A stretch of DNA of 64,000 nt, from contig JBNGDF010000008.1 in assembly GCA_049975265.1 (NCBI GenBank), positions 32,001 through 96,000 of the forward strand, written 5' to 3'. The translations under genes were made by a program, and so were the position numbers. Below the pieces are notes generated by a model that saw only the letters and a program-made list of their open reading frames with translations, had not been told where the DNA came from and did not search any database. Numbering within the stretch: the stretch's first letter is position 1; each line of letters opens with the position of its first letter. Source of the DNA: Fidelibacterota bacterium. GTDB taxonomy: Bacteria; Fidelibacterota; UBA2242. This document shows, one piece after another, positions 10,790 to 53,806 of this stretch.

Positions 10790-10814
10790 ATTTATTGAAA
10801 TGGAGATGGTCCCA

Positions 10815-30092: not shown

Positions 30093-30146
30093 ATGAAGGA
30101 AAGAGTTATCGGAATGAATATTTTACAAAAGAGGAGGTTAAGATGA
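30093..30146 (+). CDS. 17-aa leader ORF (MKERVIGMNILQKRRLR) coupled to the repeat-protein gene
   Basis: Strong AAGGAGG RBS before ATG 30093; its TGA overlaps the ATG at 30143 (ATGA). Confidence 0.35.
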   Translation: MKERVIGMNILQKRRLR

Positions 30147-33784: not shown

Positions 33785-33842
33785 TGCTGAACAACGGAAT
33801 CCAGTGGTATTGATAAAGGTGAACAATACGGTGACTCAATTT

Positions 33843-35846: not shown

Positions 35847-37111
35847 GAAAAAAATTTCGGCAGATCGGATTGAATAGCGTTTTAGCAGGCATCTTACTGC
35901 TGCTGAATACAGTACCGCTTATCGCCCGCTGTACGGCGGATATTTGGGTTGATCAAAACGGTCAGGGAGATTTCGAAACAGTAACGGAAGCCATTCAATC
36001 ACTGCCCGTTTTTAATTATGAGCGAACAACAATCTTTCTTAAGAAAGGCGTCTACACCGAAAAGATCAGGATTGACTGTGATTACATTACCTTGAGTGGC
36101 GAGAGCCGGGCGGAGACGATCATTCGCTATGCGCAATTGCGTTTGGATTGGGAGAAAGATAAAGACGCCATCGGGCCGGCGGTGGTCAATATCCATGCTG
36201 ATGATGTGATCTTAGAAAATGTTACCATCGAAAATACGCAGCCGGAGATCGGACCCCATGCCTTTGTGATATACGGCACCGGTACGCGGACAATCATTCA
36301 GCATTGTAATGTCCACAGCCGCGGAGGTGATACCATTGCCCTCTGGAATTATAAAGAGGGAAAATACTATCTAGCGGATTGCAGCATCAGCGGCGCAGTG
36401 GATTTTGTCTGTCCCAGAGGCTGGTGCTTTATGTGCGATTGTCAACTGTATGAACATAAACCGACCGCCGCGCTCTGGCATGCCGGGGGCTACTGCCGCG
36501 ATCAGAAATTTGTCATTGTGAATTCGAAATTTGACGGTGTTTCGGGTTTCAAACTGGGGCGGCATCATTACGAAGCCCAGTTTTATCTGGTGAACTGTCA
36601 ATTCTCAGAAGCGCTGAGCGATGTGCCGATCTATTATGTTTTCTATCCGGATGCACCGGAACGCAACCGACCTTTTAATTGGGGTGCCCGCTACCATTTT
36701 TATAATTGCCAACGGCAAGGTGGTGATTATGACTGGTTTGCGGATAATTTACAGGAAGCCGACGGTTCGCCCGAAGCCGCCGATCTGACTGCTGCCTGGA
36801 CATTCGCCGGAGACTGGGACCCGGAATCGCCGGCGGGTCCGGTGGTCCGGAATTATACGATCCAGGGAAATCGGGTAATCTTTCAATTTAGTGAAATTGT
36901 CAGCGTCAGCGGCTGTCCGAAATTACACACAGCGACCGGAATATCGCTTATTTACCATTCCGGTGGCGGATCGGATACAATACGTTTCGACAGTGCTACG
37001 CCGCTTAAAAGAGAAGATTTGAAAGCGCCGTTACAGATAAGTAATGGTCAATTGACCGGCACGGTGGCGGCGGTGAAACCGCGTCCGGTGGATTTCAGAT
37101 TGAAGATTTAA
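35843..37111 (+). CDS. Pectin methylesterase, CE8, with C-terminal extension
   Basis: GDFETVTEAI, KKGVYTEKI, GGDTI, GAVDFVCPRG, LGRHH. Confidence 0.9.
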   Translation: MRKKFRQIGLNSVLAGILLLLNTVPLIARCTADIWVDQNGQGDFETVTEAIQSLPVFNYERTTIFLKKGVYTEKIRIDCDYITLSGESRAETIIRYAQLRLDWEKDKDAIGPAVVNIHADDVILENVTIENTQPEIGPHAFVIYGTGTRTIIQHCNVHSRGGDTIALWNYKEGKYYLADCSISGAVDFVCPRGWCFMCDCQLYEHKPTAALWHAGGYCRDQKFVIVNSKFDGVSGFKLGRHHYEAQFYLVNCQFSEALSDVPIYYVFYPDAPERNRPFNWGARYHFYNCQRQGGDYDWFADNLQEADGSPEAADLTAAWTFAGDWDPESPAGPVVRNYTIQGNRVIFQFSEIVSVSGCPKLHTATGISLIYHSGGGSDTIRFDSATPLKREDLKAPLQISNGQLTGTVAAVKPRPVDFRLKI

Positions 37112-37124
37112 ACAGAGAGAGCCA

Positions 37125-38294
37125 GTGATTCAGCGCGTTTTTAAAATACTTAATATGGTGAGCCGGACAATCGTTCTGCCGCTGGTCGCTCTTCTTATGT
37201 TTGTCCCGAATGAGCCGCTGAATTCCCAGAATTATGAGTACCGGACAACAGAACAGACCACTCAGTCGGAATTGTGGGCAGACCTTCTGGCGCATGAAGC
37301 GGATTGGTATGCTTCACCGGAAGCGATCCGGATTGCCGAAAATGTATTGCTATATCAACGCAGCTCCGGTGGCTGGCCGAAAAATATTGACTATACCGAG
37401 CTCCTCAGTGCTGTCCAGAAAAAGGAGCTGCGGGACTATACCGACGAACCGCTGGCGACGATTGACAATGGTGCCACCTATACCCAGATGCGTTATCTGG
37501 CGAAAGTCTACGCTCCGACGAAGGATAAGCGCTACTGTCTGGCGTTTTTAAAAGGTCTGGATTATCTGTTGAAGGCGCAGTATGAAAACGGTGGCTGGCC
37601 GCAGTATTATCCGCTGCGTAAGGGGTACTATTCCCACATCACTTACAACGATGATGCGATGGTTGGCGTCATGCGTCTGCTGCGGGATATTGCCGCCGGG
37701 CGGAGTGAGTACCGGTTTGTCGATGAAAAGCGGCGTTCGATGGCGCAAAAAGCGGTTGCCAAAGGCATTGAATGTATTCTCAAGACCCAGGTGGTTGTCA
37801 ACGGAGAATTGACTGCCTGGTGCGCTCAACATGATGTCGCGACGCTGAAACCGGCGCGGGGACGGGCGTACGAGCTGCCCTCACTAAGCGGAAAAGAGAC
37901 CGTCGGAATTATCCGTTTCCTGATGGGAATCGAGAATCCGTCGCAGCAAGTCATTGAGGCTGTCGAAAGCGCCGTTGATTGGTTACAGATGGTGAAAATT
38001 GAAGGAATCCGGCGAAAAATCGTGCCGAATCACCGGAGTCCCACCGGATATGACAAGGTGGTGGTGCCGGACCCGGGTGCGCCGCCGATCTGGGCGCGGT
38101 TTTACCAGATTGGGACAAACCGACCCTTTTTCAGTGATCGCGACGGCAAGATGTACTTTCATCTGGCGGACATATCGCTGGAAAGACGAGTCAAGTACGG
38201 CTGGCTGGGTTACTGGCCGCAGGAGCTTCTGGAAAACGATTATCCCCGCTGGAACGCCCGTTATGTAGCCGGGAAACACATGCCGGAACAATAA
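37125..38294 (+). CDS. pelA: Pectate lyase, PL10 family
   Basis: GGWPKN, TIDNGAT, GGWPQYYP, ITYNDDAM, WCAQH, RAYELPSL, WARFY. Confidence 0.94.
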   Translation: MIQRVFKILNMVSRTIVLPLVALLMFVPNEPLNSQNYEYRTTEQTTQSELWADLLAHEADWYASPEAIRIAENVLLYQRSSGGWPKNIDYTELLSAVQKKELRDYTDEPLATIDNGATYTQMRYLAKVYAPTKDKRYCLAFLKGLDYLLKAQYENGGWPQYYPLRKGYYSHITYNDDAMVGVMRLLRDIAAGRSEYRFVDEKRRSMAQKAVAKGIECILKTQVVVNGELTAWCAQHDVATLKPARGRAYELPSLSGKETVGIIRFLMGIENPSQQVIEAVESAVDWLQMVKIEGIRRKIVPNHRSPTGYDKVVVPDPGAPPIWARFYQIGTNRPFFSDRDGKMYFHLADISLERRVKYGWLGYWPQELLENDYPRWNARYVAGKHMPEQ

Positions 38295-38362
38295 TAGTAA
38301 ATGAGCAGGCTGATTGCGGGAGTGTGTGAGAAAATTGAGATGTGAACGATAGGAGACATGTG

Positions 38363-39973
38363 ATGAAAGAGAGAGTAATTCAAAAAGGAATCCGGATGAC
38401 ATTGGCAGGAATTCTGGTTCTGTTACTTCAGGCATGCAGCAGTTCGACTCCGCCCTATTTCAATGTGTGCGACTTCGGAGCGATAGCCGACGGAGTAACG
38501 AAAAATACCGAAGCGATTAAAAGAGCCATCGACGCTACCGCCGCCGCGGGAGGCGGAACGGTCCACTTTCCAGCGGGAACCTATCTGACGGGTCCGATTC
38601 ACCTCAAGAGCAATGTCACAATTCATGTCGACGCCGGCGCCGTACTGAAGTTCAGTAAAGATTTCGATGATTATTTACCAATGGTGATTTCACGCTGGGA
38701 AGGTACTACCGGAATGAATTTTTCGCCTCTGTTTTACGGGTACCAACTCGAGAATGTCACCATCGAGGGACGCGGATTGCTGGACGGACAGGGAGAAGTC
38801 TGGTGGGAGTTCTATGGAAATCTGAGAAAGGAGTACAAAGAGTATGGAGAGGTACGAACCCACTCCAGGTGGCAAGAAATGCACCGGGAAGCGAACAAAA
38901 ATACTCTCCAACCCGATACCTGGATGTGGGATAACAATAATTTTCTGCGCCCGCCCTTTATTCAGTTTTATGATTGTAAAAATGTCCAGATCAAAGATGT
39001 TACCATCATCAATTCACCATTCTGGACCGTGAATCCGGAACTCTGCGATAATGTGACGATTACCGGAATTACCATCAAAAATCCGGCGGATTCCTATAAT
39101 ACCGACGGAATCAATCCCGGCTCCTGTACCAATGTTCATATTTCCAATTGTCATATCTCCGTGGGTGATGATTGTATTACCCTCAAATCGGGGCGTGATG
39201 AGGACGGTCACCGGATTGGACGTCCGGCGGAAAATATTACCATTACCAATTGCACCATGCTGAACGGACATGGCGGGGTGGTGATCGGCAGTGAGATGTC
39301 AGCCGATGTGCGTAAGGTGACGATTTCGAACTGCATATTTGACGGAACCGACCGGGGTATCCGGATCAAGTCGATGCGGGGACGCGGTGGTATCGTCGAG
39401 GAAATCCGGGTTTCCAACATCGTCATGAAAAATATTCAGCTGGAGGCAATTAAAATGAATATGGAGTATCAGAAAACCGAGCCCGAACCGGTCTCCGAGC
39501 GAACGCCCCGTTTTCGGAATATCCATATCAGCAATGTCACCGCCAGCCAGACCAGACAAGCCGCCAATCTGCTGGGACTGGATGAAATGTCCATTCAGGA
39601 TGTAACCTTTACAAATATTAATATGGACGCCCGCAGGGGATTTGAATTCAGGAATGTCGATGATATCGAATTTCACCATGTCACGATCAACGCCGAAACC
39701 GGACCGGCTTTTATGGGATCAGACGTGAACAATCTGGAAATGAACGGTGTGAAGACACAATATCTGAAAAACGGAGCGCCGGTGGTTCATCTGGAAAATG
39801 TCCGCAATGCCTATATTCACGGCGCCAATCCATTGCCGGGTACCGAAAAATATCTGTCGGTCAATGGAGATAAATCCAATAATATTGTTGTCACCGGCAA
39901 TAATTTTCAGCATGTTAAAAATCCGGTTGTGTTGGGAAATGGGGTTCCGTCTCAGGCGGTTATTCAGAAATAG
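38363..39973 (+). CDS. Polygalacturonase, GH28, probable lipoprotein
   Basis: NTDG, GDDCI, GHGG, RIKS catalytic motifs; lipobox LQAC; AGGAG RBS. Confidence 0.95.
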   Translation: MKERVIQKGIRMTLAGILVLLLQACSSSTPPYFNVCDFGAIADGVTKNTEAIKRAIDATAAAGGGTVHFPAGTYLTGPIHLKSNVTIHVDAGAVLKFSKDFDDYLPMVISRWEGTTGMNFSPLFYGYQLENVTIEGRGLLDGQGEVWWEFYGNLRKEYKEYGEVRTHSRWQEMHREANKNTLQPDTWMWDNNNFLRPPFIQFYDCKNVQIKDVTIINSPFWTVNPELCDNVTITGITIKNPADSYNTDGINPGSCTNVHISNCHISVGDDCITLKSGRDEDGHRIGRPAENITITNCTMLNGHGGVVIGSEMSADVRKVTISNCIFDGTDRGIRIKSMRGRGGIVEEIRVSNIVMKNIQLEAIKMNMEYQKTEPEPVSERTPRFRNIHISNVTASQTRQAANLLGLDEMSIQDVTFTNINMDARRGFEFRNVDDIEFHHVTINAETGPAFMGSDVNNLEMNGVKTQYLKNGAPVVHLENVRNAYIHGANPLPGTEKYLSVNGDKSNNIVVTGNNFQHVKNPVVLGNGVPSQAVIQK

Positions 39974-40105: not shown

Positions 40106-40148
40106 ATGCTTGGCAAGTTAACATGTGAAATCACACTTTAGAAAAACC

Positions 40149-41261
40149 ATGATTGATCTGAACAATCCGGAACCACTCTACCGACAAGTTGCTGCCGATA
40201 TCCGCACCAGAATTATCTCCGGCGAACTGGTTGCCGGCGACCGGATCGGATCGCAGCAGGAGCTGACCAAAATCTATAACGTCAGTCCTATTACCGTCAA
40301 AAAGGCGGTGGCGGAGCTGATTCGCGAGGGCGTCCTTTTCAGCCGCGTCGGCAAGGGCATCTATGTGGCGGCTCCCCGGAAACGGGTGGATTTTTCCAAA
40401 ACCCAGACCATCGGTTTTGTGCTCAGAGATTTGAACAGCCCGTTCTTTTCGCGAATTCTGACGAGTGTGGAGCGGACGGTTTCGGATAACCGCTACAATC
40501 TTCTTTTGGCGAACTCCACCGATCGTTCCGACATCGAGGACGAGCAGCTGCGGCACTTTCTGAATCTGGGGGTCAGCGGAATCATCATCGCCTCCATGAG
40601 TCACCACTATTCTGCCACGCCGCTGATCCGCCAGCTTAGCCATGATAACTATCCGGTGGTGGTGGTCTCATACATTGACGATGAGGACATCTGTTTTATC
40701 GGTACGGATCATGAGACCGGCGGCTACATTGCCACGGAACATCTGATCCAGTGTGGCTACCGGCGCATCGGTTATATCAACGGCGAGCCGGGCAACCGGG
40801 TAGGGGAACTGCGCTTCGAGGGGTATCGGAAAGCGCTTGCCGACCATGGATTGAATTATCAACCGGAGGATATTTACCGTTTGCAGCATTGCGGCGAGGC
40901 ATACGATTATCAATCGGGGTATGAGATCGGTGAACAGTATTTGCGACAGATGAGCCGGGCGGAAGCGCTTTTTGTTTACAATGATTTGGCGGCGCTGGGA
41001 TTTCAGAGAGCCGTGCTGGATGCCGGACGGAAGGTTCCCGAAGATGTGGCAATCGTCGGCTTTGACGATATCAAGCGGGGTGTCACGGCACCGGTCCCGC
41101 TGACAACCATTCACCAGCCTACCGATGAGATCGGGCTACTGGCGGTGAAGACGTTACTTGCCAAAATCAATAATCAGCCGGTCAGAATGCGTCAGATTCT
41201 GAAACCCACGCTGGTGATCAGAGAATCCTGTGGTATGCAGAAGAGAAATAAATCAGGATAA
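40149..41261 (+). CDS. GntR-HTH/LacI-effector-domain chimeric regulator (AraR-type)
   Basis: PLYRQV..VSPITVKKAVAEL..GKGIYV wHTH fused to periplasmic-binding-protein-like domain (NDLAALG, VGFDDI, PLTTIHQP). Confidence 0.93.
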   Translation: MIDLNNPEPLYRQVAADIRTRIISGELVAGDRIGSQQELTKIYNVSPITVKKAVAELIREGVLFSRVGKGIYVAAPRKRVDFSKTQTIGFVLRDLNSPFFSRILTSVERTVSDNRYNLLLANSTDRSDIEDEQLRHFLNLGVSGIIIASMSHHYSATPLIRQLSHDNYPVVVVSYIDDEDICFIGTDHETGGYIATEHLIQCGYRRIGYINGEPGNRVGELRFEGYRKALADHGLNYQPEDIYRLQHCGEAYDYQSGYEIGEQYLRQMSRAEALFVYNDLAALGFQRAVLDAGRKVPEDVAIVGFDDIKRGVTAPVPLTTIHQPTDEIGLLAVKTLLAKINNQPVRMRQILKPTLVIRESCGMQKRNKSG

Positions 41262-41279
41262 AATTTGGAGGGTGATGCG

Positions 41280-42482
41280 ATGTATAAACATGGTCTGGTT
41301 TCAATCCTTATCGTTGGATTATTTGCCTGCAGCCCGACACAGAAAATGGTCACGGTACGGATAAAGAACACAACGAATCTGCAGCGTCAGGATGCGCTGG
41401 TTGCCATTGATCTCGAAAAATTATCTCAACCGGGATTAACGGATAAACCGGTTGTCGTTGAAGCCGGGCATGAAGATATCCCGGTGCAAGAATTTGGGAA
41501 TGAATTGTATCTGGTGGTCGATTTGGAGCCGATGGAGGAGAAGTCACTGACACTCCGGGTGGTCAGGGATGTTCCTCACTATCCGCAGCGTGCGCACGCC
41601 GAACTGTCCCGTAAAACCGGTGGTCGTTTCGAGGGAAGTCTCTACGTCGGCGGCACTTTCGAGAAGGTGACCGACGAAGTTATTCCGCCGGAACACGCGA
41701 TTCACGATAACTATTATCGCTATGAAGGACCGGGCTGGGAGTCCGACCGGGTCGGCTATCGCTATTATCTGGATGAGCGCAACCGGATTGACATTTTCGG
41801 AAAGAGAGTGACCCGGATAGTGCTGCCCGAGGTAGGTCTGGACGGGCTGGATTCCTATCATGAACTCTCGGAGTGGGGCGCCGATATCTTTAAAGTAGGT
41901 GAATCGCTGGGAATCGGTTCGGTGGGCACTTTTATTGATGGTAAGGTTTGCCAGGTCAATCAGACCGACAGTACGCGGGTCCGGATTGTTACCGACGGTC
42001 CCGTTTGGGCGGAGGTTCAGACCGATTATTACGGATGGCAGCTGGATCAACACAAGCTCCATCTGGAATCTCATTTGGCAATTCACGCCGGAACCCGGCT
42101 GACCCGGCACAAACTCTGCATTCATAACGGTTTGGAAAATCTCGTCACCGGTTTGGTCAAAACGGAGGGTTGTTCTTACATCGAAGGAGTACTGCACGAC
42201 AATTCCTCCGGCTGGAACTACATTGCGCTGTGGGGCAGGCAGAGCCTGATGGGAGACAATCTGGGCACGGCAATTTTTTATCGGGAAGCGGATTTAATCG
42301 AGATTACCGAAGATGAGCTCAATTATCTGGTCGTCCTGAAACCGACAGACAGTCGTCTGACGTACTATTTTGCCGCTGCCTGGGAAGCCGAGCCCAACGG
42401 AATCAAAAGCGAAGGGGAATTTACCGATTATCTGGGGCAAACAGTCATGGAATTGAACAACCCCGTTAAGGTGATGTATTAA
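41280..42482 (+). CDS. DUF4861-like lipoprotein (pectin locus associated)
   Basis: Lipobox LFAC; EGPGWESDRVGYR.Y, IDIFGK, YH...WG.DIFKVG.SLGIG. Confidence 0.8.
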   Translation: MYKHGLVSILIVGLFACSPTQKMVTVRIKNTTNLQRQDALVAIDLEKLSQPGLTDKPVVVEAGHEDIPVQEFGNELYLVVDLEPMEEKSLTLRVVRDVPHYPQRAHAELSRKTGGRFEGSLYVGGTFEKVTDEVIPPEHAIHDNYYRYEGPGWESDRVGYRYYLDERNRIDIFGKRVTRIVLPEVGLDGLDSYHELSEWGADIFKVGESLGIGSVGTFIDGKVCQVNQTDSTRVRIVTDGPVWAEVQTDYYGWQLDQHKLHLESHLAIHAGTRLTRHKLCIHNGLENLVTGLVKTEGCSYIEGVLHDNSSGWNYIALWGRQSLMGDNLGTAIFYREADLIEITEDELNYLVVLKPTDSRLTYYFAAAWEAEPNGIKSEGEFTDYLGQTVMELNNPVKVMY

Positions 42483-42495
42483 TAAAGGAGTTGCA

Positions 42496-43326
42496 ATGAA
42501 GGTACGATATTTAGCAGACCCGCAACGTTTTCCCCGCATGACGACAAAGGAGCTGCGGGAGACCTTTCTGGTGGAGAATCTTTTTCAAGCAGGCAAACTG
42601 GAAATGCTCTACAGCGACACAGAGCGGGCAGTAGTGGCGGGTGTCGTTCCCACTGTTGAACCGCTGGAGCTGCCCGGAGGGAAAGAGCTGGCGAGTGATT
42701 ATTTTGCACAGCGCCGGGAAGCAGGGGTAATCAATATCGGCGCAACGGGAACGGTGACGGTTGACGGTGAATCATATCATTTGTCAAAGCTCGATTGTCT
42801 CTACATCGGTCGCGGTGCGAAGCAGATACACTTTATGAGTGACGACTCGAAAAATCCGGCGGAATTTTACCTGCTCAGTTATCCGGCGCACCGCGATTAT
42901 CCGACGAAACTGATTCACAAAGCGGAAGCGAATCAGGTGGCGCTGGGAGGGCTGAAAACATCGAATGAGCGGATTATCTATCAATACATTCGCCCCGGCG
43001 TGGCGGAGAGCTGTCAACTGGTGATGGGTTTGACATTGCTTGCTGAGGGCAGTGTCTGGAATACCTTCCCGCCGCATACCCATGCCCGACGGACTGAGAT
43101 TTACCTCTATTTTGGTCTCGGTGCGGATGAGCGTGTCTTTCACATGATGGGTTTGCCGTCAGAGACACGGCATCTGGTGATGAGAAACAGGGAGGCGGTG
43201 CTGTCACCCAGCTGGTCAATTCACGCCGGCGCCGGTTCCGGCAATTACGGTTTTATCTGGGGCATGGGGGGTGAAAATCAGGAGTTTGACGATATGGATC
43301 ATGTCAACATTGACGAAATCCGATAG
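42496..43326 (+). CDS. kduI: 5-dehydro-4-deoxy-D-glucuronate isomerase
   Basis: RREAGVINIG, SCQLVMGLT, WNTFPPHTHARRTE, SPSWSIHAG, MGGENQEFDDMD. Confidence 0.96.
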   Translation: MKVRYLADPQRFPRMTTKELRETFLVENLFQAGKLEMLYSDTERAVVAGVVPTVEPLELPGGKELASDYFAQRREAGVINIGATGTVTVDGESYHLSKLDCLYIGRGAKQIHFMSDDSKNPAEFYLLSYPAHRDYPTKLIHKAEANQVALGGLKTSNERIIYQYIRPGVAESCQLVMGLTLLAEGSVWNTFPPHTHARRTEIYLYFGLGADERVFHMMGLPSETRHLVMRNREAVLSPSWSIHAGAGSGNYGFIWGMGGENQEFDDMDHVNIDEIR

Positions 43327-43344: not shown

Positions 43345-44340
43345 ATGATCATTGAAGAACGTGCCTATGCCCGCGCCGGATTACTGGGTAATCCCTCGGA
43401 CGGCTATTTCGGGAAGACCATCTCCGTAATTGTCCGCAATTTCGGGGCGCATATCCAGCTCTGGGAGTCGCCGTCGCTCTGCATCCAGGCAGCCGTCAGT
43501 GAAGCGCCGCGGTACCGGAACCTGAACGAGCTGTTGGAGCAGACGACCGCCTTAGGCTACTATGGTGGCGAGCGCCTGATCAAGGCGGCGATTGTCACCT
43601 TTGCCGAATATTGCCGGGAGCAGGACATTGCCCTGGAGAATAAAAATTTCACCCTGCAGTTTCATTCCAGTATCCCGCGGCAGGTAGGACTGGCTGGCTC
43701 CAGTGCTATTGTGACGGCGACCATGAAGGCGCTGCTGCGCTTTTTCAATGTCCGTATTCCGAAAGCCTTTCTGCCGACGCTTATACTGCGGGCGGAGACG
43801 GAGCAGCTGGGCATTAATGCCGGGCTGCAGGACCGGGTGGTTCAGGTCTACGAAGGCTGCGTCTATATGGATTTTAACCGGGAGCAGATGAAAAAAAAAC
43901 AGCATGGCATCTATCAGAAAATCGATGTCGAAAAACTGCCCAGGCTGTACATCGCTTACAAGACCCGTCTAAGCAAAGTATCCGGAAAGGTACTGAATAT
44001 CATCCGACTTAAGTATGAACAGAAAGACCCGGCGGTTCTGAGGGCTCTGGATGAGATCGCCGGTCTGGCGGAAGCCGGTCGTGCGGCGCTTGAATCGGGT
44101 CGGACGGAGGAGCTCTTTGAGCTGCTGAACCGGAATTTCGATCTGCGGCGTTCGATTATGCCGATCAATGCATCCAATCTGGAACTGGTGGAGACGGCAC
44201 GGGCATGTGGTGCTTCGGCAAAATTCGCCGGTTCCGGCGGATCCATTATTGGAACGTACAGGGATGACGCCATGCTGAACCGGCTGATTTTGGGGCTGAA
44301 GCGAATTGATGCGCGGGTCATTAAACCGTTTATTCTATAG
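43345..44340 (+). CDS. GHMP kinase resembling plant glucuronokinase
   Basis: ARAGLLGNPSDGYFGKTIS, GYYGG, IPRQVGLAGSSA, AGLQDRVVQVYEG, KFAGSGG. Confidence 0.88.
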   Translation: MIIEERAYARAGLLGNPSDGYFGKTISVIVRNFGAHIQLWESPSLCIQAAVSEAPRYRNLNELLEQTTALGYYGGERLIKAAIVTFAEYCREQDIALENKNFTLQFHSSIPRQVGLAGSSAIVTATMKALLRFFNVRIPKAFLPTLILRAETEQLGINAGLQDRVVQVYEGCVYMDFNREQMKKKQHGIYQKIDVEKLPRLYIAYKTRLSKVSGKVLNIIRLKYEQKDPAVLRALDEIAGLAEAGRAALESGRTEELFELLNRNFDLRRSIMPINASNLELVETARACGASAKFAGSGGSIIGTYRDDAMLNRLILGLKRIDARVIKPFIL

Positions 44341-44352
44341 GAGAAGATAAAC

Positions 44353-45234
44353 ATGGTTCGGAAAGCAGTTATACCGGCGGCGGGATTGGGCACCCGGTTT
44401 TTACCGGTCACCAAAGCGCAACCCAAGGAGATGTTGCCGATCATTGATACACCGACGATCCAGTATGTGGTTCAGGAGGCGATAGATGCCGGCATTGAGG
44501 ATATTCTGATTATTTCAGGAAAAGGAAAACGGGCGATTGAGGATCATTTTGATCGCAGCCCGGAGCTGGAATTATTGTTAAATCAGAAGGGCAAGACGGA
44601 GCAATTTTACGAGGTCAGTCGTCTGGGTGAAATGGCGAATATTCACTTCATCCGGCAGAAGGAGCTGAAGGGGCTCGGCGATGCCATCTCCTATGCCCGT
44701 CAGCACACCGGTGATGAACCCTTTGTAGTGATGCTGGGCGACACGATTATCGATTCGGTTATTCCCGTTACCCAGCAGCTGATTGATGTCTACAACCAGT
44801 TTTGTCAAAGTGTGATTGCCGTGGAGGAGGTGGCGCCGGAAAAGGTTGGTCGTTACGGAATTATCGCCGGTAAGGCAATTGACGAGCGCACCTATCAGCT
44901 GACCGGCATTGTGGAGAAGCCGAAGCCCGCCGACAGCCCTTCTAATCTGGCGGTAGCGGGGCGCTACATTCTGACGCCGGAGGTGTATTCGATTCTGGAT
45001 GACCTGCCACCCGGTGTCAATGATGAGATTCAGCTCACCGATGCCTTGCAAATTCTGTTGAAACGGGAGAACATCTACGCTTATCGCTTTGAGGGACGGC
45101 GCCATGATATCGGCAACAAGCTGGATTATCTGAAAACCACGGTGGAATACGCCTTGAAACGGGCGGAATTCGACGAACCATTTATGGAATTTTTAAAAGC
45201 AGTCGTAGCCAGGGAGAAAAATGATGAATCCTGA
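44353..45234 (+). CDS. galU: UTP-glucose-1-phosphate uridylyltransferase family
   Basis: KAVIPAAGLGTRFLPVTKAQPKEMLP, GLGDA, VEKP, EIQLTDA. Confidence 0.94.
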   Translation: MVRKAVIPAAGLGTRFLPVTKAQPKEMLPIIDTPTIQYVVQEAIDAGIEDILIISGKGKRAIEDHFDRSPELELLLNQKGKTEQFYEVSRLGEMANIHFIRQKELKGLGDAISYARQHTGDEPFVVMLGDTIIDSVIPVTQQLIDVYNQFCQSVIAVEEVAPEKVGRYGIIAGKAIDERTYQLTGIVEKPKPADSPSNLAVAGRYILTPEVYSILDDLPPGVNDEIQLTDALQILLKRENIYAYRFEGRRHDIGNKLDYLKTTVEYALKRAEFDEPFMEFLKAVVAREKNDES

Positions 45235-46624
45235 TCGTTTTTTTGATGCCGATGAAAATGTTCGCAAAATTGCACGTGAGTTGTATGCCGAGGTGAGAGA
45301 CCTGCCGCTGATCAGCCCGCACGGTCATGTGGACCCGAAACTGTTTGCCGGGAATCAACCCTTTCCGGACCCGGCAGAGCTCTTTATTATCCCCGATCAT
45401 TATATCTTCCGAATGCTCTATTCGCAAGGTATTGCGCTGGAGTCACTGGGGATTCCGCGACGGGATGGATCGGTGGACGAGACCGACCGGCGCAAGGTCT
45501 GGCGGATTTTTGCGGAAAATTATTATCTCTTTGCCGGAACCCCCAGCGGCATCTGGCTGAATCATGAACTGCGTGAGCTGTTTGGTATTCAGGAAAAGCT
45601 CAACGGTACGAATGCCGATGACATATTCGATCGGATTCAGGCGAAATTAGCGACGCCGGAGTATCTGCCCCGGGCGCTGTACGACCGCTTCAATCTGGAG
45701 GTGCTGACTACCACGGACAATCCCTGGGATTCGCTGAGTTATCACCGGCAGATCAAAGATTCCGATTGGGACGGAGAAATCGTACCCTGTTTCCGACCGG
45801 ACGGCGTGACCGATATCAGTCGGGAGGACTGGCAGGCTAATATCGAGAAACTATCCAAAGCCAGCGGAATCTGGATTACCAGTTACCGGCAGCTGATCCG
45901 GGCGCTGGAGGATCGGCGCGCCTTTTTCAAGTCTATGGGGGCGGTCTCCACGGATCACGGTGTTAAGGAGGCACTGACGCTGCGCCTTTCCGATGAAGAA
46001 GCCGACCGCATTTTTCAGAAGGCGCTGAAGGGAAATGTTTCTGTCGACGATGCGCGGATCTTTACAGCGCATATGCTGATGGAGATGGCGCGGATGAGCT
46101 GCGATGACGGATTGATCATGCATCTGCATGCCGGGGCATTGCGCAATCACAACGAACGGATTTTTAAGAAATTCGGTCCCGATAAGGGCGCCGACATACC
46201 GATCGCTTCGGAATTTACGGTGAATCTGAAACCGTTACTGAATGCTTACGGCAGTGAACGTAATTTTCACCTGATTCTCTTTACTCTTGATGAATCCACC
46301 TATTCCCGGGAACTGGCGCCGCTGGCGGGGCATTATCCGGCGCTGCGACTGGGTCCAGCCTGGTGGTTTCACGACAGCGTTCAGGGGATGATTCGATTTC
46401 GGGAACGGACACTGGAGACCGCCGGCGTCTACAATATGATCGGATTTATTGATGATACCCGGGCGTTTCCCTCCATTCCTGCCCGTCACGATCTGGCGCG
46501 CCGTATCGACAGTAACTATCTGGCGGGTCTGGTGGCGAAGCATATTATCGATATGGCGGATGCCCAAAAAATGAATTATGCCCTGGCATACGGACTCTCC
46601 AGGGAAATGTATCGTAAACAATGA
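45221..46624 (+). CDS. uxaC: Uronate isomerase
   Basis: ISPHGHVD, PDHYIFRMLYSQG, STDHG, RELAPLAGHYP, WWFHDS, DDTRAF.SIPARHD. Confidence 0.96.
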   Translation: MMNPDRFFDADENVRKIARELYAEVRDLPLISPHGHVDPKLFAGNQPFPDPAELFIIPDHYIFRMLYSQGIALESLGIPRRDGSVDETDRRKVWRIFAENYYLFAGTPSGIWLNHELRELFGIQEKLNGTNADDIFDRIQAKLATPEYLPRALYDRFNLEVLTTTDNPWDSLSYHRQIKDSDWDGEIVPCFRPDGVTDISREDWQANIEKLSKASGIWITSYRQLIRALEDRRAFFKSMGAVSTDHGVKEALTLRLSDEEADRIFQKALKGNVSVDDARIFTAHMLMEMARMSCDDGLIMHLHAGALRNHNERIFKKFGPDKGADIPIASEFTVNLKPLLNAYGSERNFHLILFTLDESTYSRELAPLAGHYPALRLGPAWWFHDSVQGMIRFRERTLETAGVYNMIGFIDDTRAFPSIPARHDLARRIDSNYLAGLVAKHIIDMADAQKMNYALAYGLSREMYRKQ

Positions 46625-46652: not shown

Positions 46653-47651
46653 ATGAAAAAGTATTTTTTACCTGGCTTTGTTCTTGGGTTGATGCTGATC
46701 CTGCTGCCTGCCTGCAGCCGGGACAGCCGCACAAAGGTAATCAAACTCGGACATGCGCTGAATGCCGATCATCCGGTCCATAAGGCAATGGTCTTCATGG
46801 CTGACCGGGTAAAAGAGAAATCCGACGGTCGGTTGCGCATTGATATCTATCCCAGTCAGCAATTGGGTACCGAGCGGGAGCTGGTGGAGCTGTTGCAAAT
46901 CGGCAGCCTGGGAATTACCAAGGTCTCGTCGGGTGTTATTGAGGGCTTTGTGCCGGTTCACAAAGTATTCGGTTTGCCCTATCTGTTTCGGGATGAAGAG
47001 CACCGCTTTTGCGTGCTGGAGGGTGAAGTCGGAAAGCAGATTTTACTGAGCAGTGAGCAGTACTGGCTGCGGGGGCTCTGCTATTATGACGCCGGCAGCC
47101 GCAGTTTTTATTCCAAAGACAAACCGATATTAACACCTGCTGATTTAGCCGGTTTGAAGGTGCGTACCATGAACAGCCCCACGGCGGTGGCGATGATCCA
47201 GCAGATGGGCGGCTCGGCGACACCGATCGCCTGGGGCGAGCTGTACACGGCATTGCAGCAGGGGGTCGTGGATGCAGCGGAGAACAATCCCCCTTCCTAT
47301 CACCTGTCGCGGCATTACGAAGTATGCAAACATTACTCTCTGGATGAACATACCTCCGTACCGGATGTGCTGCTGATCAGTACAATTATCTGGAACGACC
47401 TGACGCCGCAGGAGCAGCAGTGGCTGCAGGAGGCGGCGGATGAATCGGCACAGTATCAGAAGCAGCTCTGGAAGGAGGCTTGTGAATTTGCCCTTCAGGA
47501 GGTTCAGAAAAGTGGGGTAAAAGTCTACTATCCCGACAAGAGAGCATTTGCCGAAAAGGTAGCGCCTATTTATGAACGTTACCGTGATCAGCCGGAGCTC
47601 TATGAATTAATTCAAAAAATAAGGACGGAGAGTGATGGGAAACCGAATTAA
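46653..47651 (+). CDS. dctP: TRAP transporter substrate-binding lipoprotein
   Basis: Lipobox LPAC, QLGTERE, GLKVRTM, ELYTALQQGVVDAAENN. Confidence 0.94.
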   Translation: MKKYFLPGFVLGLMLILLPACSRDSRTKVIKLGHALNADHPVHKAMVFMADRVKEKSDGRLRIDIYPSQQLGTERELVELLQIGSLGITKVSSGVIEGFVPVHKVFGLPYLFRDEEHRFCVLEGEVGKQILLSSEQYWLRGLCYYDAGSRSFYSKDKPILTPADLAGLKVRTMNSPTAVAMIQQMGGSATPIAWGELYTALQQGVVDAAENNPPSYHLSRHYEVCKHYSLDEHTSVPDVLLISTIIWNDLTPQEQQWLQEAADESAQYQKQLWKEACEFALQEVQKSGVKVYYPDKRAFAEKVAPIYERYRDQPELYELIQKIRTESDGKPN

Positions 47652-48153
47652 AATATTTGTTGACCGCTGGTTAAGCCGGATTTTGATCGGTTTGATGGCG
47701 TTCAGCGTGTTGAATGTCCTCTGGCAGGTGTTGACGCGGTTTATCCTGAAGCATCCCAGCTCCTATACGGAAGAGCTGGCGCGGTTTTTACTGATCTGGG
47801 TCGGTATGCTTGGCGCCGCTTGGGCGTCCGGTCAGAAAATGCACCTGGCGATTGATTATTTTACCCTGAAGATGAAACCCGATCTGCAAAGGTTTGTTGG
47901 GCTTTTTATTCAGGTTGTGGTATTTCTGTTTGCTTTATTTGTAATGGTAATCGGCGGGCTGCGCCTAGTGACCATTACGCTCGCTCTCAATCAGACCTCG
48001 GCGGCACTGCAGATCAAACTGGGATATGTCTATGCGGTCGTACCGATCAGCGGGGTACTCATCATGTTTTACGCCGTGATGCTCTTCAGCGACTATTTGC
48101 GCGGCGGTGTCCAGGCTATAGCAGGAGCGGAGGGTAATGATGGCAGCAATTGA
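47635..48153 (+). CDS. dctQ: TRAP transporter small permease
   Basis: QVLTRF, YTEELAR, HLAID, 4 TM helices. Confidence 0.92.
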   Translation: MGNRIKIFVDRWLSRILIGLMAFSVLNVLWQVLTRFILKHPSSYTEELARFLLIWVGMLGAAWASGQKMHLAIDYFTLKMKPDLQRFVGLFIQVVVFLFALFVMVIGGLRLVTITLALNQTSAALQIKLGYVYAVVPISGVLIMFYAVMLFSDYLRGGVQAIAGAEGNDGSN

Positions 48154-49438
48154 CATTTTGGTACTGGCGGGTGTATTTGTTTTTCTCCTTGTTATCGGCA
48201 CACCAATTTCCTTCAGCATCGGTGTCGCCACGATCTGCACCATGCTGCTGAGCATTCATTCGCTGCCGGCGCTGACCACGGTGGCTCAGCGCATGGCGAC
48301 GGGACTGGACAGTTTTGCGCTGCTGGCGATTCCCTTCTTTGTCCTGTCGGGGCAATTGATGAATCACGGGGGCATTGCCCGGCGTCTGATCAATTTTGCC
48401 AAGGTCCTGGTGGGGCGTCTGCCGGGAGGTCTGGCTTTTGTGAACATCATTGCGGCGATGTTTTTCGGAGCAATTTCCGGTTCGGCGGCGGCAGCGGCGG
48501 CGGCGATCGGCGGTTTTATGGTTCCGATGATGAAAAAAGAGGGCTATGATGAAAATTTCAGTGCGGCGGTGAATATCACCAGCTCTACCACGGGGCTGAT
48601 CATTCCTCCCAGTAATATCCTGATCGTTTACTCACTGGCAAGCGGCGGTGTATCCATTGCGGCTCTCTTCGTTGCGGGGTATCTGCCCGGAATATTGGTG
48701 GGGCTGACGCTGATGGTAGTAGCCGGGTTGATTTCCAAAAAACGCAATTACCCGACGGTGCCCAGGATCGGATTGCTGCAGGCGGTGAAATATTTTCTCG
48801 CTGCAATTCCGAGTCTGCTGTTGATTGTGATTGTCATCGGCGGAATTATCGCCGGATTCTTTACAGCCACCGAGGCCTCGGCGATTGCCGTGCTTTATAC
48901 CTTTGTGCTGTCGGTCCTGATTTATAAGGAGGTGAAGTGGAAACAGATACCGTCAATTTTGCTCTCTACGGTGGGGACGACGGCGATTGTGATGTTGCTG
49001 ATCGGTACCTCCATGAGCATGTCCTGGATTATGTCTTACGAAAATATTCCCCAGAATATCAGCGCGGCGCTGATTGCATTGACCGACAGTAAAATTATTA
49101 TTTTATTGATTATCAATTTGATTCTTCTGCTGGTGGGAACCTTTATGGATATGACGCCGGCGGTGCTGATTTTTACGCCGATATTCCTGCCGGTGGTTAC
49201 ACAGCTGGGCATTCATCCGATCCATTTCGGCATTATGATGGTGCTGAATCTCTGTGTGGGGCTCTGTACCCCGCCGGTGGGATCGGTGCTGTTTATCGGC
49301 TGCGGGATTGCCAATTGCCGGATCGACAAGGTGATTCGACCGCTTCTGCCGCTCTTTCTGGCGATGTTTATTGCGCTGATGTTGATCACCTATATACCGG
49401 AGATCACGATGCTGATACCGCGGGCGTTGGGATATTAA
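48137..49438 (+). CDS. dctM: TRAP transporter large permease
   Basis: LLAIPFF, FGAISGSA, IIPPS, TATEA, HFGI, TPPVG. Confidence 0.95.
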   Translation: MMAAIDILVLAGVFVFLLVIGTPISFSIGVATICTMLLSIHSLPALTTVAQRMATGLDSFALLAIPFFVLSGQLMNHGGIARRLINFAKVLVGRLPGGLAFVNIIAAMFFGAISGSAAAAAAAIGGFMVPMMKKEGYDENFSAAVNITSSTTGLIIPPSNILIVYSLASGGVSIAALFVAGYLPGILVGLTLMVVAGLISKKRNYPTVPRIGLLQAVKYFLAAIPSLLLIVIVIGGIIAGFFTATEASAIAVLYTFVLSVLIYKEVKWKQIPSILLSTVGTTAIVMLLIGTSMSMSWIMSYENIPQNISAALIALTDSKIIILLIINLILLLVGTFMDMTPAVLIFTPIFLPVVTQLGIHPIHFGIMMVLNLCVGLCTPPVGSVLFIGCGIANCRIDKVIRPLLPLFLAMFIALMLITYIPEITMLIPRALGY

Positions 49439-49473: not shown

Positions 49474-50292
49474 ATGAGTCAGAAAATTACTGAAAGATAT
49501 AATTTTCAAAATAAATGTGCCGTCGTCACCGGCGGTGCGGGGGTGCTGGGCTCCGGTTTTACAAAGGCGCTGCTGGATTGCGGCGCCAATGTGGCGATTC
49601 TGGATTTGAATGCGGATAAAAGCGACGGCTATGGCGAATACGGTGATCGCTTTTTGCCGCTCAAAACCAACGTTCTAGAGAAGGACTCGGTCCAGGCGGC
49701 GGTCAATGATGTAGTGAAGCATTTTGGAGCGGTGGATTTGCTGGTTAATGCGGCGGGCGGCAATCATCCCGATGCCAGCAGCAGCGCTGAGGTTCCTTTT
49801 TTTGATCTGCCTGCCGAGGCGTTAAAGTTCGTGACCGATCTGAACCTGCTGGGTACGATTTTGCCGAGCCAGGTGGTAGGGAAACTCATGGCAGAGCATC
49901 AGCAGGGAGTAATTCTGAACGTTTCTTCCATGAGCGCTTTTCGTCCATTGACCCGGGTGGTCGGCTATTCGGCGGCGAAAGCGGCGGTGAGCAATTTTAC
50001 CCAGTGGCTGGCGGTCTATATGGCGCAGGAGTACTCGCCGAATATCCGGGTGAATGCCCTTGCCCCGGGCTTTTTCCTGACTAAACAGAATGAGTTTTTG
50101 CTGGTTGATAAAGAGACCGGGAAATTGACCGGGCGGGGTCAAAAGATCATTGATCATACACCGATGAGGCGATTCGGGAATCCGGAGGACCTGCTGGGGG
50201 CGCTGCTCTGGCTGTTGTCTGAGGATTCGCAGTTCGTGACCGGAATCGTGCTGCCGATTGACGGCGGTTTTTCCGCATATTGTGGTGTTTAA
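49474..50292 (+). CDS. uxuB: SDR-family D-mannonate oxidoreductase (fructuronate reductase)-like
   Basis: TGGAGVLG, NAAGGNHP, RPLTRVVGYSAAK, APGFFLTKQN, DGGFSAY; substrate inferred from subfamily motifs and context. Confidence 0.8.
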   Translation: MSQKITERYNFQNKCAVVTGGAGVLGSGFTKALLDCGANVAILDLNADKSDGYGEYGDRFLPLKTNVLEKDSVQAAVNDVVKHFGAVDLLVNAAGGNHPDASSSAEVPFFDLPAEALKFVTDLNLLGTILPSQVVGKLMAEHQQGVILNVSSMSAFRPLTRVVGYSAAKAAVSNFTQWLAVYMAQEYSPNIRVNALAPGFFLTKQNEFLLVDKETGKLTGRGQKIIDHTPMRRFGNPEDLLGALLWLLSEDSQFVTGIVLPIDGGFSAYCGV

Positions 50293-50306: not shown

Positions 50307-51770
50307 ATGGATACCGTGAAGCAGTGTCATATTGGTTTAATCGGACTGGCGGTCATGGGTGAAAACCTGGTGCTCAATATGGAGCGTAACGGCTTTTCCG
50401 TAGCGGTTTTCAACCGGACCGTGAGCAAAGTCGATAGATTTTTGGCAGACCGGGCGAAAGGCAGGAATATCGTCGGGTGCCACAGCATTGAGGAGCTGGT
50501 GGCGAATCTCGAACGTCCCCGGGAAATTATGCTGCTGGTGAAAGCCGGCAAACCGGTGGATGATTTTATTGAAAAGTTGCTGCCGCACCTGGAAAAAGGC
50601 GACATCATTATCGACGGCGGCAACAGTTACTTCTCCGATACGATTCGGCGAACAAAATATGTAGAGAGCAAGGGCTTGCTGTACATCGGGACCGGTGTTT
50701 CCGGTGGTGAAGAGGGTGCCTTAAACGGACCTTCCATTATGCCGGGCGGGTCGCCGGCTGCCTGGTCGCATGTGAAGCCGATTTTCCAGAAAATCGCGGC
50801 GAAAGTAGCCGACGGATCACCCTGCTGCGAATGGGTCGGCGACAATGGCGCCGGGCATTTTGTGAAAATGGTGCATAACGGGATTGAATATGGTGATATG
50901 CAAATGATCAGCGAATCTTACTGGATCATGAAAAATGCCCTCGGTTTGACCTATGATGAGATGCAGGCGATTTTCGAAAAGTGGAACCAGGGAGAACTGA
51001 ACAGTTACCTGATTGAGATCACAGCTGCGATCATGGGCAAAAAGGACCCGGAGACTGGTAAACCGATGCTGGAAGTCATTATGGATCGAGCCGGTCAGAA
51101 GGGCACCGGACGCTGGACCAGCCTGGAGGCGTTGAATCTGGGCGTACCGGCTCCGACGGTGGTGGAGGCGGTGCTGGCGCGGGCGATGAGCGCCATAAAG
51201 GAAGAGCGCGTTGCCGCGGCTCAGGTATTGAGCGGACCACGGATGAAATTTAGTGCTGAAAAGAACGCATTTATCGAGAAGATTCGGCGGGCGCTGTATG
51301 CCTCGAAAATCTGCTCCTATGCGCAGGGATATCAGCTGATGAGAGCGGCGGCTGAGGAGTACAAATGGGACCTGAAGTATGGTGAAATCGCTCTGATGTG
51401 GCGGGGCGGCTGCATTATCCGGGCGCAGTTTCTGGGGCGCATCAAGGAGGCTTATGATAAGAATCCTGGCTTGCAGAATCTGTTGCTGGATGATTATTTC
51501 AAAGCCGCCATCGATGAAAACCAGGCTGCCTGGCGGGAGGTCATTGCCCAGGCGGTAGCGCTGGGTATTCCGGTACCGGCGTTCAGCAGTGCGCTGGCGT
51601 ATTATGACGGTTACCGCAGCGAACGACTTCCGGCAAATCTCCTGCAGGCACAGCGCGACTATTTTGGTGCTCATACGTATGAGCGGGTGGACAAGCCGCG
51701 GGGTGAATTTTTTCACACCGACTGGACCGGTCACGGCGGCAAGACCGCATCGACAACCTATAACGTGTAA
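50307..51770 (+). CDS. gndA: 6-phosphogluconate dehydrogenase (decarboxylating, NADP)
   Basis: [50 protein letters not shown]. Confidence 0.97.
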
Positions 51771-51786
51771 CACTACAGGAGGAATA

Positions 51787-52554
51787 ATGTCCGGAATACT
51801 GGATAAATTTCGGCTGGACGGTAAGGTGGCGATCGTCACCGGCGCCAGCCGCGGACTGGGGCAGGGAATCGCCATCGGTCTGGCGGAGGCGGGCGCCGAT
51901 CTTGCGCTGGTGGATATCCTGGAAATGGAAAATACAAAAAAAGCCATCGAAGAAACCGGCAGAGACGCCGTTTCAATTCACGCCGATCTGTCTTCCATTG
52001 ACAGTGTAAAATCCATCGTGGAAAAAACGGTGGCGGAATTTGGGAAAATTGATATTCTGGTGAACAATGCTGGCATCATCCGACGGGCGCCGCTGGTGGA
52101 GTTTACCGAAAAGGATTGGGATGATGTCATTAACATTAATCAGAAAACCCTGTTTTTCCTGAGTCAGGCGGTGGCAAGGGTGATGATTGCAAAGGGCAAC
52201 GGCGGGAAAATCATCAATACCGCCTCGATGCTCTCCTTTCAGGGCGGCATTCGGGTCCCCTCTTATACCGCTTCAAAAAGCGCCGTCATGGGATTGACCC
52301 GCCTGATGGCGAACGAGCTGGCGCCCTACGGAATCAATGTGAATGCCATTGCCCCCGGCTATATGGCGACGGACAATACGGCGCCGCTACGTGCCGATGC
52401 GACGCGCAGCCGGGAAATTCTCAGTCGTATTCCGGCGGGACGCTGGGGTACCCCGGAAGACCTGCAGGGTGTGGCGGTTTTTCTGGCGTCAGCCGCTTCG
52501 GACTACATGCAGGGCTATACCGTGGCGGTTGACGGAGGCTGGTTGGCGAGGTAG
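51787..52554 (+). CDS. kduD: 2-dehydro-3-deoxy-D-gluconate 5-dehydrogenase
   Basis: ASMLSFQGGIRVPSYTASKS, NAIAPGYMATDNT, VDGGWLAR; AGGAGG RBS before ATG 51787. Confidence 0.95.
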   Translation: MSGILDKFRLDGKVAIVTGASRGLGQGIAIGLAEAGADLALVDILEMENTKKAIEETGRDAVSIHADLSSIDSVKSIVEKTVAEFGKIDILVNNAGIIRRAPLVEFTEKDWDDVININQKTLFFLSQAVARVMIAKGNGGKIINTASMLSFQGGIRVPSYTASKSAVMGLTRLMANELAPYGINVNAIAPGYMATDNTAPLRADATRSREILSRIPAGRWGTPEDLQGVAVFLASAASDYMQGYTVAVDGGWLAR

Positions 52555-52557
52555 GAG

Positions 52558-53778
52558 ATGTTGAACATACAGACAGTGCGTTCTATCATTACGAAAGCCT
52601 TCAATGACTGGCAGATTTACGGCAGGCGGGTGCTTTTTATTATTCCCGATAATTCCCGCACCGCACCAATTGATTGGATTTTCCGGATTATTTACGAGCA
52701 ATTGAGAGAACGCGCCGCGACGATTGACTTCCTGATTGCGTTGGGAACCCATCCGCCGCTAAGAGAGGAGCAGATTTACAAACGGGTTGGCATAACCCGG
52801 GAAGAGCGGCACCGGGATTTTTCCAAAGCCCGATTTTTTAACCACCACTGGAAAGATCCGCAGCAGCTGATGACGATCGGGATACTTGCCGCGGAAGATG
52901 TGGAAACACTCTCTGAAGGACGGCTGTCAGACTCCGTGCCGGTCACCATCAACCGTCTGATTCAGCATTACGAAATGCTGGTGGTGATTGGTCCGGTTTT
53001 TCCCCATGAGGTGGTGGGCTTTTCGGGTGGGAATAAATACTTTTTCCCGGGTATTTCCGGTCCCGAAATCATTGATCTGTTTCATTGGCTGGGGGCGCTG
53101 ATTACTAACCAGAAAATCATCGGTATCAAGCATACGCCGGTGCGGGCGGTGGTGGATGCTGCCGCACAGTTGATCCCGGCGGAACGCCGCTGTTTTGCTT
53201 TAGTAATGAAGCAGGACGGTCTCAGCGGAATGTTCGCCGGTACACCCGAGGAAGCCTGGTCCCGGGCGGCGGACCTGTCGGCGCAGGAGAATATTGTGTA
53301 TGTGGATGCTCCGTTTCAAACGGTTCTGTCCCGGGCACCGGAGATGTACGAGGACCTTTGGACCGGCGGGAAGTGCATGTACAAACTGGAACCGGTGGTG
53401 GCTGACGGCGGTGAATTGATCATCTATGCACCGCATATTCGCGAAGTATCGGTCACACATGGTGAGATTATCCGGCAGGTGGGCTATCATGTCCGGGATT
53501 TTTTTACCGGGCAGTGGGAAAAATACCGCCGCTTTTCCGGTGGTATCCTGGCGCACTGTACCCATGTCAAGGGTGCGGGTGAATATGTAGATGGCGTTGA
53601 AAAACCGCGGATCAAGGTAACCCTCGCTACAGGAATTTCGAAACAAATCTGTCACACCATCAATCTCGGATACTGCGATCCGCAATCAATCCGGATAGCG
53701 GATTTTCAGAATCGGGAGAAAGACGGGATTTTGTATGTGCCGAAAGCGGGGGAAAGGCTGTATCGATTAATAAAATGA
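52558..53778 (+). CDS. LarA-family (nickel-pincer-dependent) hydroxyacid racemase/epimerase
   Basis: PDNSRT, IALGTH, FPHEVVGFSGGNKYFFPG, LFHW correspond to the LarA D..R, His, His/Lys and His motifs. Confidence 0.85.
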   Translation: MLNIQTVRSIITKAFNDWQIYGRRVLFIIPDNSRTAPIDWIFRIIYEQLRERAATIDFLIALGTHPPLREEQIYKRVGITREERHRDFSKARFFNHHWKDPQQLMTIGILAAEDVETLSEGRLSDSVPVTINRLIQHYEMLVVIGPVFPHEVVGFSGGNKYFFPGISGPEIIDLFHWLGALITNQKIIGIKHTPVRAVVDAAAQLIPAERRCFALVMKQDGLSGMFAGTPEEAWSRAADLSAQENIVYVDAPFQTVLSRAPEMYEDLWTGGKCMYKLEPVVADGGELIIYAPHIREVSVTHGEIIRQVGYHVRDFFTGQWEKYRRFSGGILAHCTHVKGAGEYVDGVEKPRIKVTLATGISKQICHTINLGYCDPQSIRIADFQNREKDGILYVPKAGERLYRLIK

Positions 53779-53806
53779 ATATGAAAATAATAAACCGGAG
53801 ATAACG

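Follow-up and report, generated by a model that had tools for sequence, protein, structure and literature searches.

A glucuronokinase-family kinase and a co-inherited GalU-family uridylyltransferase as a predicted salvage route to UDP-glucuronate in bacteria

The textbook source of UDP-glucuronate in bacteria is UDP-glucose dehydrogenase. Among the described systems closest to the one reported here, the Arabidopsis glucuronokinase GlcAK (At3g01640, EC 2.7.1.43) is, according to Pieslinger 2010, specific for glucuronate (GlcA) and rejects galacturonate (PMC2823444). The zebrafish enzyme DrGKUP (glucuronokinase / putative uridyl pyrophosphorylase) was reported to phosphorylate GlcA only, rejecting the other sugars tested, galacturonate included, and its pyrophosphorylase domain gave only trace product (Gangl 2014, PMC3938481). 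In bacteria, ScGalK/ScGPUT of Solitalea canadensis has been described for the salvage of xylose and Fkp of Bacteroides for that of fucose (PMC11267548). Homologues of the plant kinase in Solibacter, Dyadobacter and Verrucomicrobium were listed by Pieslinger 2010 (PMC2823444) and, together with the names carried in databases, mean that there is nothing new in a bacterial homologue of glucuronokinase as such; the first-pass annotation of the DNA analysed here, which took the kinase motifs to be characteristic of the eukaryotic enzyme, did not mention these homologues, published as early as 2010. Our literature search, in which subscription journals were thinly covered, found no assay of a bacterial glucuronokinase and no description of its pairing with GalU.

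Here, we report the analysis of a kinase-galU gene pair in a stretch of 64,000 nucleotides (hereafter the window) from a Fidelibacterota bacterium (assembly GCA_049975265.1, contig JBNGDF010000008.1). It is proposed that the kinase makes glucuronate-1-phosphate and that the GalU-family enzyme joins this product to UTP, giving UDP-glucuronate directly from the free sugar acid, a reading that we consider fairly probable. Such a salvage route, with a product possibly destined for surface glycans and a GalU putatively adapted to uronate-1-phosphates, had already been put forward in the first pass, and it is the best reading of a kinase of this family that is co-inherited with a GalU whose pocket region is altered.

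The kinase and its gene neighbourhood

The kinase is, as judged from its sequence, a member of the glucuronokinase family (EC 2.7.1.43). The four motifs by which it was originally recognised are all present in its open reading frame, namely GNPSDGYFGKTIS at residues 15-27, GYYGGERL at residues 71-78, the ATP-binding motif IPRQVGLAGSSA at residues 110-121 and AGLQDRVVQVYEG at residues 159-171, and the Pfam GHMP_kinases_N model (PF00288) matches with an E value of 7e-13. The kinase domain of zebrafish DrGKUP (P0248) is 42% identical to the window kinase over 316 aa (E 9e-84) and shares 77 of the 105 positions that are nearly invariant among 120 close homologues of the latter. A quick tree was built from 60 proteins, with long outgroup branches and without the genome's own galactokinase; in it, the window kinase, its bacterial homologues and the eukaryotic glucuronokinases split from five outgroups with an SH-aLRT support of 87. 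The family is widespread: all 8000 scored candidates pass an E value of 0.001, several of the best 120 homologues carry the JGI name glucuronokinase, the nearest ESM Atlas cluster is a mix of bacteria and Streptophyta, and a locus of Candidatus Neomarinimicrobiota encodes a kinase 94% identical to that of the window.

The predicted structure of the kinase (pLDDT 83.9) matches the GHMP fold. The nearest solved GHMP structures by fold are 13-21% identical to it, the sequence matches of solved GHMP kinases have E values of 1e-10 or weaker (1e-7 to 1e-10 for HddA/mevalonate kinase), and no solved structure of the glucuronokinase family was found in either the sequence or the fold comparison. Against the NCBIfam models for HddA/mevalonate kinase, the window kinase scores 39 bits (cut-off 600) and 56 bits (cut-off 163), and it is far below cut-off for the galactokinase (25 bits) and Fkp (20 bits) models. 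Its identification as HddA, mevalonate kinase or galactokinase was rejected, the scores lying under every family cut-off; a separate galactokinase gene is found beside galT, with GalT and GalE also present in the genome. The zebrafish identity, the tree and the weak sequence matches to solved GHMP kinases bear out the first-pass annotation, which had placed the enzyme among the glucuronokinases and would have been contradicted by a grouping with mevalonate kinase or HddA.

The pair is embedded in a pectin and hexuronate locus (Table 1), in which every gene from 30143 to 54886 lies on the plus strand. The galU reading frame begins 12 bases past the kinase stop and that of uxaC overlaps the galU stop by 14 bases (11 when uxaC is started at its second ATG); both the gap and the overlap were found as previously described. 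A promoter scan gave 22 against a shuffled background of 15.1 (sd 3.8) and a terminator scan 20 against 16.2 (sd 4.4); both being near background, co-transcription is argued from gene spacing only. In the TRAP transporter set, dctP was identified by profile scan, and dctQ and dctM were named by size and position. The LarA-family protein, possibly a mannonate/gluconate epimerase, scores 188 bits against NF052594, under the cut-off of 500, and reaches no other family cut-off either. Neither UxuA nor UxaA was found in the genome, and the combination of UxaE, a UxuB-type reductase, LarA, PfkB and gnd without them suggests a Thermotoga-type mannonate route, in which mannonate is converted to gluconate and then to 6-phosphogluconate (PMC7583248). 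The pectin locus also encodes a large secreted protein, whose only match is a weak one to 3-keto-disaccharide hydrolase.

Table 1. Features of the window discussed in the text (positions in the 64,000-nucleotide window).
Feature	Position	Strand	Remarks
KDPG aldolase	10139-10786		precedes UxaE
KdgK-like kinase	10800-11837		precedes UxaE
UxaE tagaturonate-fructuronate epimerase	11904..13151	+	30 kb upstream of the pair, same window
1213-aa secreted protein	30143-33784	+	tandem ~210-residue domains and Por-secretion tail
Pectate lyase, pectinesterase, pectic acid lyase, GH28	33804..39973	+	pectin-degrading enzymes
GntR/LacI-type regulator and DUF4861 protein	40125..42482	+	head of the kinase-galU-uxaC run
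kduI	42496..43326	+	NF002091 411 bits; ends 18 bases upstream of the kinase
Glucuronokinase-family GHMP kinase, predicted D-glucuronate 1-kinase	43345..44340	+	331 aa
GalU-family uridylyltransferase, kinase-linked clade	44353..45234	+	293 aa; sole GalU of the genome
uxaC uronate isomerase	45221..46624	+	NF002794 544 bits, cut-off 387
TRAP transporter dctP and two membrane subunits	46653..49438	+	likely uronate uptake
D-mannonate oxidoreductase, UxuB-type SDR	49474..50292	+	NF006132 346 bits, cut-off 281
gnd, KduD-like SDR, LarA-family protein, PfkB sugar-acid kinase	50307..54886	+	

Co-inheritance of kinase and GalU genes

The distribution of the two genes was followed in genomes that are related to one another and incomplete; among these, the kinase and GalU occur in the identical 11 of 151 genomes of the window's own phylum, the remaining 140 having neither. 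Within Bacteroidota, 161 genomes from the order of G151 gave 18 with the kinase, and these are also the 18 with a GalU over the cut-off; the two genes lie far apart in 4 of the 18, and one small genome without the kinase has an ordinary-type GalU slightly below the cut-off. In Spirochaetota, the phylum of G152, kinase and GalU coincide in 2 of 151 genomes, and G384 has a kinase-linked GalU in addition to a native one. In the phylum of G154, the kinase is present in 58 of 133 genomes and GalU in 29, and all 29 GalUs over the cut-off occur in kinase genomes. The other 29 of the 58 kinase genomes gave no GalU at E 1e-62, which indicates that the kinase can persist without this GalU; in the 20 GalU-less kinase loci taken from them, no nucleotidyltransferase lies next to the kinase and most have mutY. 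The GalU-less glucuronokinase-like clade (L344-L363; G487, G526-G552) is mostly found beside mutY, often with a carbamoyltransferase. A fish-type transferase, considered as a possible substitute for GalU, occurs in 27 of these 29 GalU-less kinase genomes, but also in 16 genomes without the kinase, and its neighbour in the two loci inspected is a gene for a ROK-like kinase.

Of 52 genome loci examined for linkage, 51 have galU directly after the kinase, the contig of the 52nd stopping ~110 bases past the kinase, and this adjacency is therefore not due to chance. Further loci with room for a second gene show galU less than 400 bases after the kinase in 73 of 74 cases and at 500 bases in the 74th. 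Both sets of loci, however, were taken from the closest matches, with many kin or duplicates among them, and overstate the adjacency rule. Seven GalU-kinase fusion proteins were also found, with a GalU-like domain 33-36% identical to the window GalU; in animal-type proteins, the kinase is fused to another transferase family. Other domain combinations occur in eukaryotes, where the glucuronokinase domain of P0205 is joined to a PF01704 pyrophosphorylase and that of P0185, from Blastocystis, to the purine-synthesis GARS domain. Cultured carriers of the pair are represented by Spirosoma, Nibrella and Rufibacter loci. A mobilizable plasmid of Rufibacter tibetensis carries a copy (L255:9001-10939), the sole plasmid match among 72,556 records.

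The hexuronate catabolic operon in which the first-pass annotation placed the pair is borne out for the window locus; as a general rule it fails, as hexuronate genes lie near only 11 of the 45 longer kinase-galU loci. It could be thought that the substrate is a different sugar acid, or that the pair serves a recycling or repair loop (for example on glucuronate from the cell's own polymers), without a link to pectin. Most loci lie outside catabolic operons, the plasmid copy is set among unrelated genes, a similar GalU accompanies a sister family of kinases, and recycling has been proposed for the plant enzyme by Pieslinger 2010 (PMC2823444), all of which would agree with such a role. On the other hand, none of the 11 genomes of the phylum with the pair lacks UxaC, although only 34 of its 151 genomes encode this enzyme, and the pair is found among hexuronate genes both there and in a Calditrichia locus. 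This alternative, whose chemistry would be the same as that of the proposed salvage route if the sugar is glucuronate, is considered quite improbable.

The GalU-family enzyme and its sugar pocket

A single GalU was found among the 8 nucleotidyltransferases of the genome (95.3% complete), and the second, housekeeping galU that was looked for, the window gene having been taken for a paralogue, did not turn up. As the sole genomic copy, with a score of 371 bits against the TIGR01099 GalU model, over the UDP-glucose pyrophosphorylase equivalog cut-off of 326.8, and with all catalytic and UTP-binding residues kept (G11, R15, K25, E26, Q102, G107, D130, G169, E188, K189 and E225; numbering from published GalU work), the enzyme might be an ordinary UDP-glucose pyrophosphorylase carried along with the kinase in a cassette, the fate of glucuronate-1-phosphate lying elsewhere. 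The 29 genomes that hold the kinase without GalU would be in line with this explanation, which we nevertheless judge unlikely. A GalU-family gene is missing from the 140 relatives, 111 of which have a Ugd-like gene, so that the window GalU is probably not a housekeeping enzyme and looks like an accessory partner of the kinase. In addition, G384 retains its linked copy beside the native GalU, kinase-GalU fusions exist, and the two genes co-occur even when unlinked. According to Gangl 2014 (PMC3938481), no other pathway using GlcA-1-phosphate was known.

In the window's phylum, UDP-glucose probably comes from a non-GalU enzyme, and two RmlA-long-type proteins would be the candidate makers in the window genome. 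The candidates there are the RmlA-long protein beside rimO (L084) and the transferase beside HPr kinase (L086). A Ugd-like gene is present in 7 of the 11 pair-bearing genomes and in the window genome, where it scores 550 bits, below the TuaD cut-off of 700. The pair as a replacement for Ugd was ruled out on these grounds, and with a Ugd-like gene in the genome, the pair would be a side route, not needed for UDP-glucuronate.

At position 131, where the Asp of P. aeruginosa GalU helps to hold glucose and is nearly essential (PMC11005391), the window GalU has a Thr; it also has A202, and V222 in place of the Lys that is usual in its clade. Among 151 kinase-linked GalUs, position 131 is Thr in 147, Cys in 3 and Ser in 1, with no Asp, and it is Cys in all seven fusions, compared with Asp in 36 of 39 GalUs of a small comparison set (8 of 10 named GalUs and 28 of 29 from one phylum, that of the spirochaetes, with archaeal GalUs not represented). 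All 151 kinase-linked GalUs and all 7 fusions have A202, as against 1 of 39 in the comparison set, the exception being a spirochaete GalU that sits beside a sister-family GHMP kinase. Position 202 adjoins the residue whose backbone binds glucose (V214 in Klebsiella, V201 in the window enzyme), and position 222, three residues before the cleft-edge Glu, is Lys or Arg in 144 of the 151 kinase-linked GalUs and Arg or His in the fusions. The loss of an acid and the gain of a base close to the sugar would be well matched to a substrate with a carboxylate, and the absence of the Asp might make room for this group at C6.

The cassette explanation finds some support in the window copy, which is without the Lys222 of its clade, and in Klebsiella GalU, whose V138, at the same position as 131, is dispensable (PMC11796359). 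E. coli GalU, too, has a Val at position 131, as in the Klebsiella enzyme active on glucose-1-phosphate; the loss of the Asp is therefore proof neither of a new substrate nor of an exit from the GalU family, and the window GalU probably keeps some activity on glucose-1-phosphate. Conversely, the T131/A202 pattern recurs in kinase-linked GalUs that are only 33-41% identical to the window GalU, which speaks against an ordinary enzyme, and in the sets searched it occurs only with the kinase. In a tree built from 57 of 198 sequences, the kinase-linked GalUs form a distinct clade (SH-aLRT 93), and the kinase-linked, fused and sister-linked GalUs lie on one side of one branch (support 68). A convergent origin of the residue pattern was set aside in view of this shared branch, and an analogy with RmlA W224H was dropped, the one paper found giving only a wider sugar tolerance for that mutation. 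Together, the distribution of the genes and the residue patterns support the view that GalU is a dedicated, co-inherited partner of the kinase with an altered sugar-pocket region.

A sister GHMP family, recognised by the motif GNP[ST]DMYGG and sharing ~28% identity with the window kinase, has a GalU partner as well. In two sister-linked loci (L392:7380-9244 of G431 and L393:8588-10496 of G517), the GalU combines S131 and A202 with a basic residue around position 222; one of these loci has a GH2 gene as a neighbour, and its counterpart has genes of the uxaC-like, LarA and HAD types. The pattern-bearing spirochaete GalU and one from the phylum of G154 both adjoin a kinase of this family, to which 2947 of 7997 candidates match, some of them named from Chloroflexota. 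The family is a candidate kinase for another uronate. A different GHMP kinase is fused to a C-terminal nucleotidyltransferase in L267:1229-3148 and L268:1333-3261, and genes carried by Nostoc plasmids share 60-62% identity with its kinase part.

Predicted route and comparison with known systems

In the proposed salvage route, the kinase would phosphorylate D-glucuronate with ATP at C1, and the GalU-type enzyme would convert the resulting glucuronate-1-phosphate with UTP into UDP-glucuronate, beside the usual dehydrogenase route. Glucuronate may be supplied by TRAP uptake or from the galacturonate of pectin. UxaC, a reversible enzyme, isomerises galacturonate to tagaturonate and glucuronate to fructuronate, with UxaE linking both products, and galacturonate could thus be turned into glucuronate through UxaC, UxaE and then UxaC again, if the latter works backwards from fructuronate. 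Given UxaC and UxaE, the pectin setting needs no galacturonate kinase, and the idea that galacturonate has no catabolic route here, and hence needs a kinase, was ruled out by the presence of UxaE in the window.

The pair might instead activate galacturonate, alone or with glucuronate, to UDP-galacturonate, and a UDP-uronate 4-epimerase would then connect both pools. Such a function would fit the pectin locus, the 28 of 105 conserved kinase positions at which the fish enzyme differs, and an SDR encoded elsewhere in the genome (G000:C4:11004-12026), a candidate UDP-glucuronate 4-epimerase that resembles 5u4q and 6zl6, the latter a UDP-glucuronate 4-epimerase. The same candidate could, in the salvage route from glucuronate, turn the product of the pair into UDP-galacturonate. 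Hexuronate genes, however, surround the pair in a minority of the longer loci, as described above, and UxaC and UxaE already provide a route for galacturonate. Direct use of galacturonate, which had been entertained at first, is unlikely because the zebrafish and Arabidopsis enzymes, both characterised members of the family, reject it, and activation of galacturonate by the pair is regarded as very doubtful. A tentative extension of the glucuronate route, to which we give somewhat less than an even chance, is that this GalU lineage is a dedicated UDP-uronate pyrophosphorylase for two GHMP families, which here would complete a path from pectin to UDP-glucuronate free of any NAD-dependent oxidation, running through galacturonate, tagaturonate, fructuronate, glucuronate, glucuronate-1-phosphate and UDP-glucuronate.

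If true, this path would stand as the first case of uronate salvage in bacteria, and a gene would be supplied for glucuronate-1-phosphate uridylyltransferase activity (EC 2.7.7.44). A second route to UDP-glucuronate would change the reading of dehydrogenase mutants and of uronate-fed cells, the groups affected being Bacteroidota and several uncultured phyla, and the 'GalU' annotation would have to be corrected across the whole clade. The pair would also be a small, all-bacterial set of enzymes for obtaining UDP-glucuronate from cheap glucuronate. Already known are the kinase homologues, the glucuronokinase names in databases, and the kinase and transferase pairs for fucose and xylose.

Compared with these and the other known systems, the window pair resembles ScGalK/ScGPUT and Fkp in combining a bacterial GHMP sugar-1-kinase with a nucleotidyltransferase that leads from a free sugar to a nucleotide sugar, whereas both of these belong to other kinase subfamilies and act on other sugars; unlike the bifunctional chain of Fkp, the window pair consists of two reading frames, with fused relatives elsewhere. 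HddA, a heptose-7-phosphate kinase, and mevalonate kinase share only the GHMP fold with the window kinase. The window GalU is like the GalUs of TIGR01099 in exceeding the family cut-off and keeping the catalytic residues, and unlike them in having T131 and A202. As in DrGKUP, the kinase is coupled to a nucleotidyltransferase, but DrGKUP is one fused protein where the window has two genes, and its transferase domain is of a different family, with no tblastn match in the window genome at E 1e-4. With Arabidopsis GlcAK and UDP-sugar pyrophosphorylase, the pair shares the kinase family (the sequence aligned being the zebrafish one only) and the same predicted two-step route. Plants use a broad eukaryote-type pyrophosphorylase as the second enzyme, whereas the window has a member of the GalU family; a PF01704 search of the window genome gave no match, the control of the same search also being blank. 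The pair would work in the manner of the plant salvage arm and of the ScGalK/ScGPUT and Fkp pairs, a GalU-family enzyme taking the second step.
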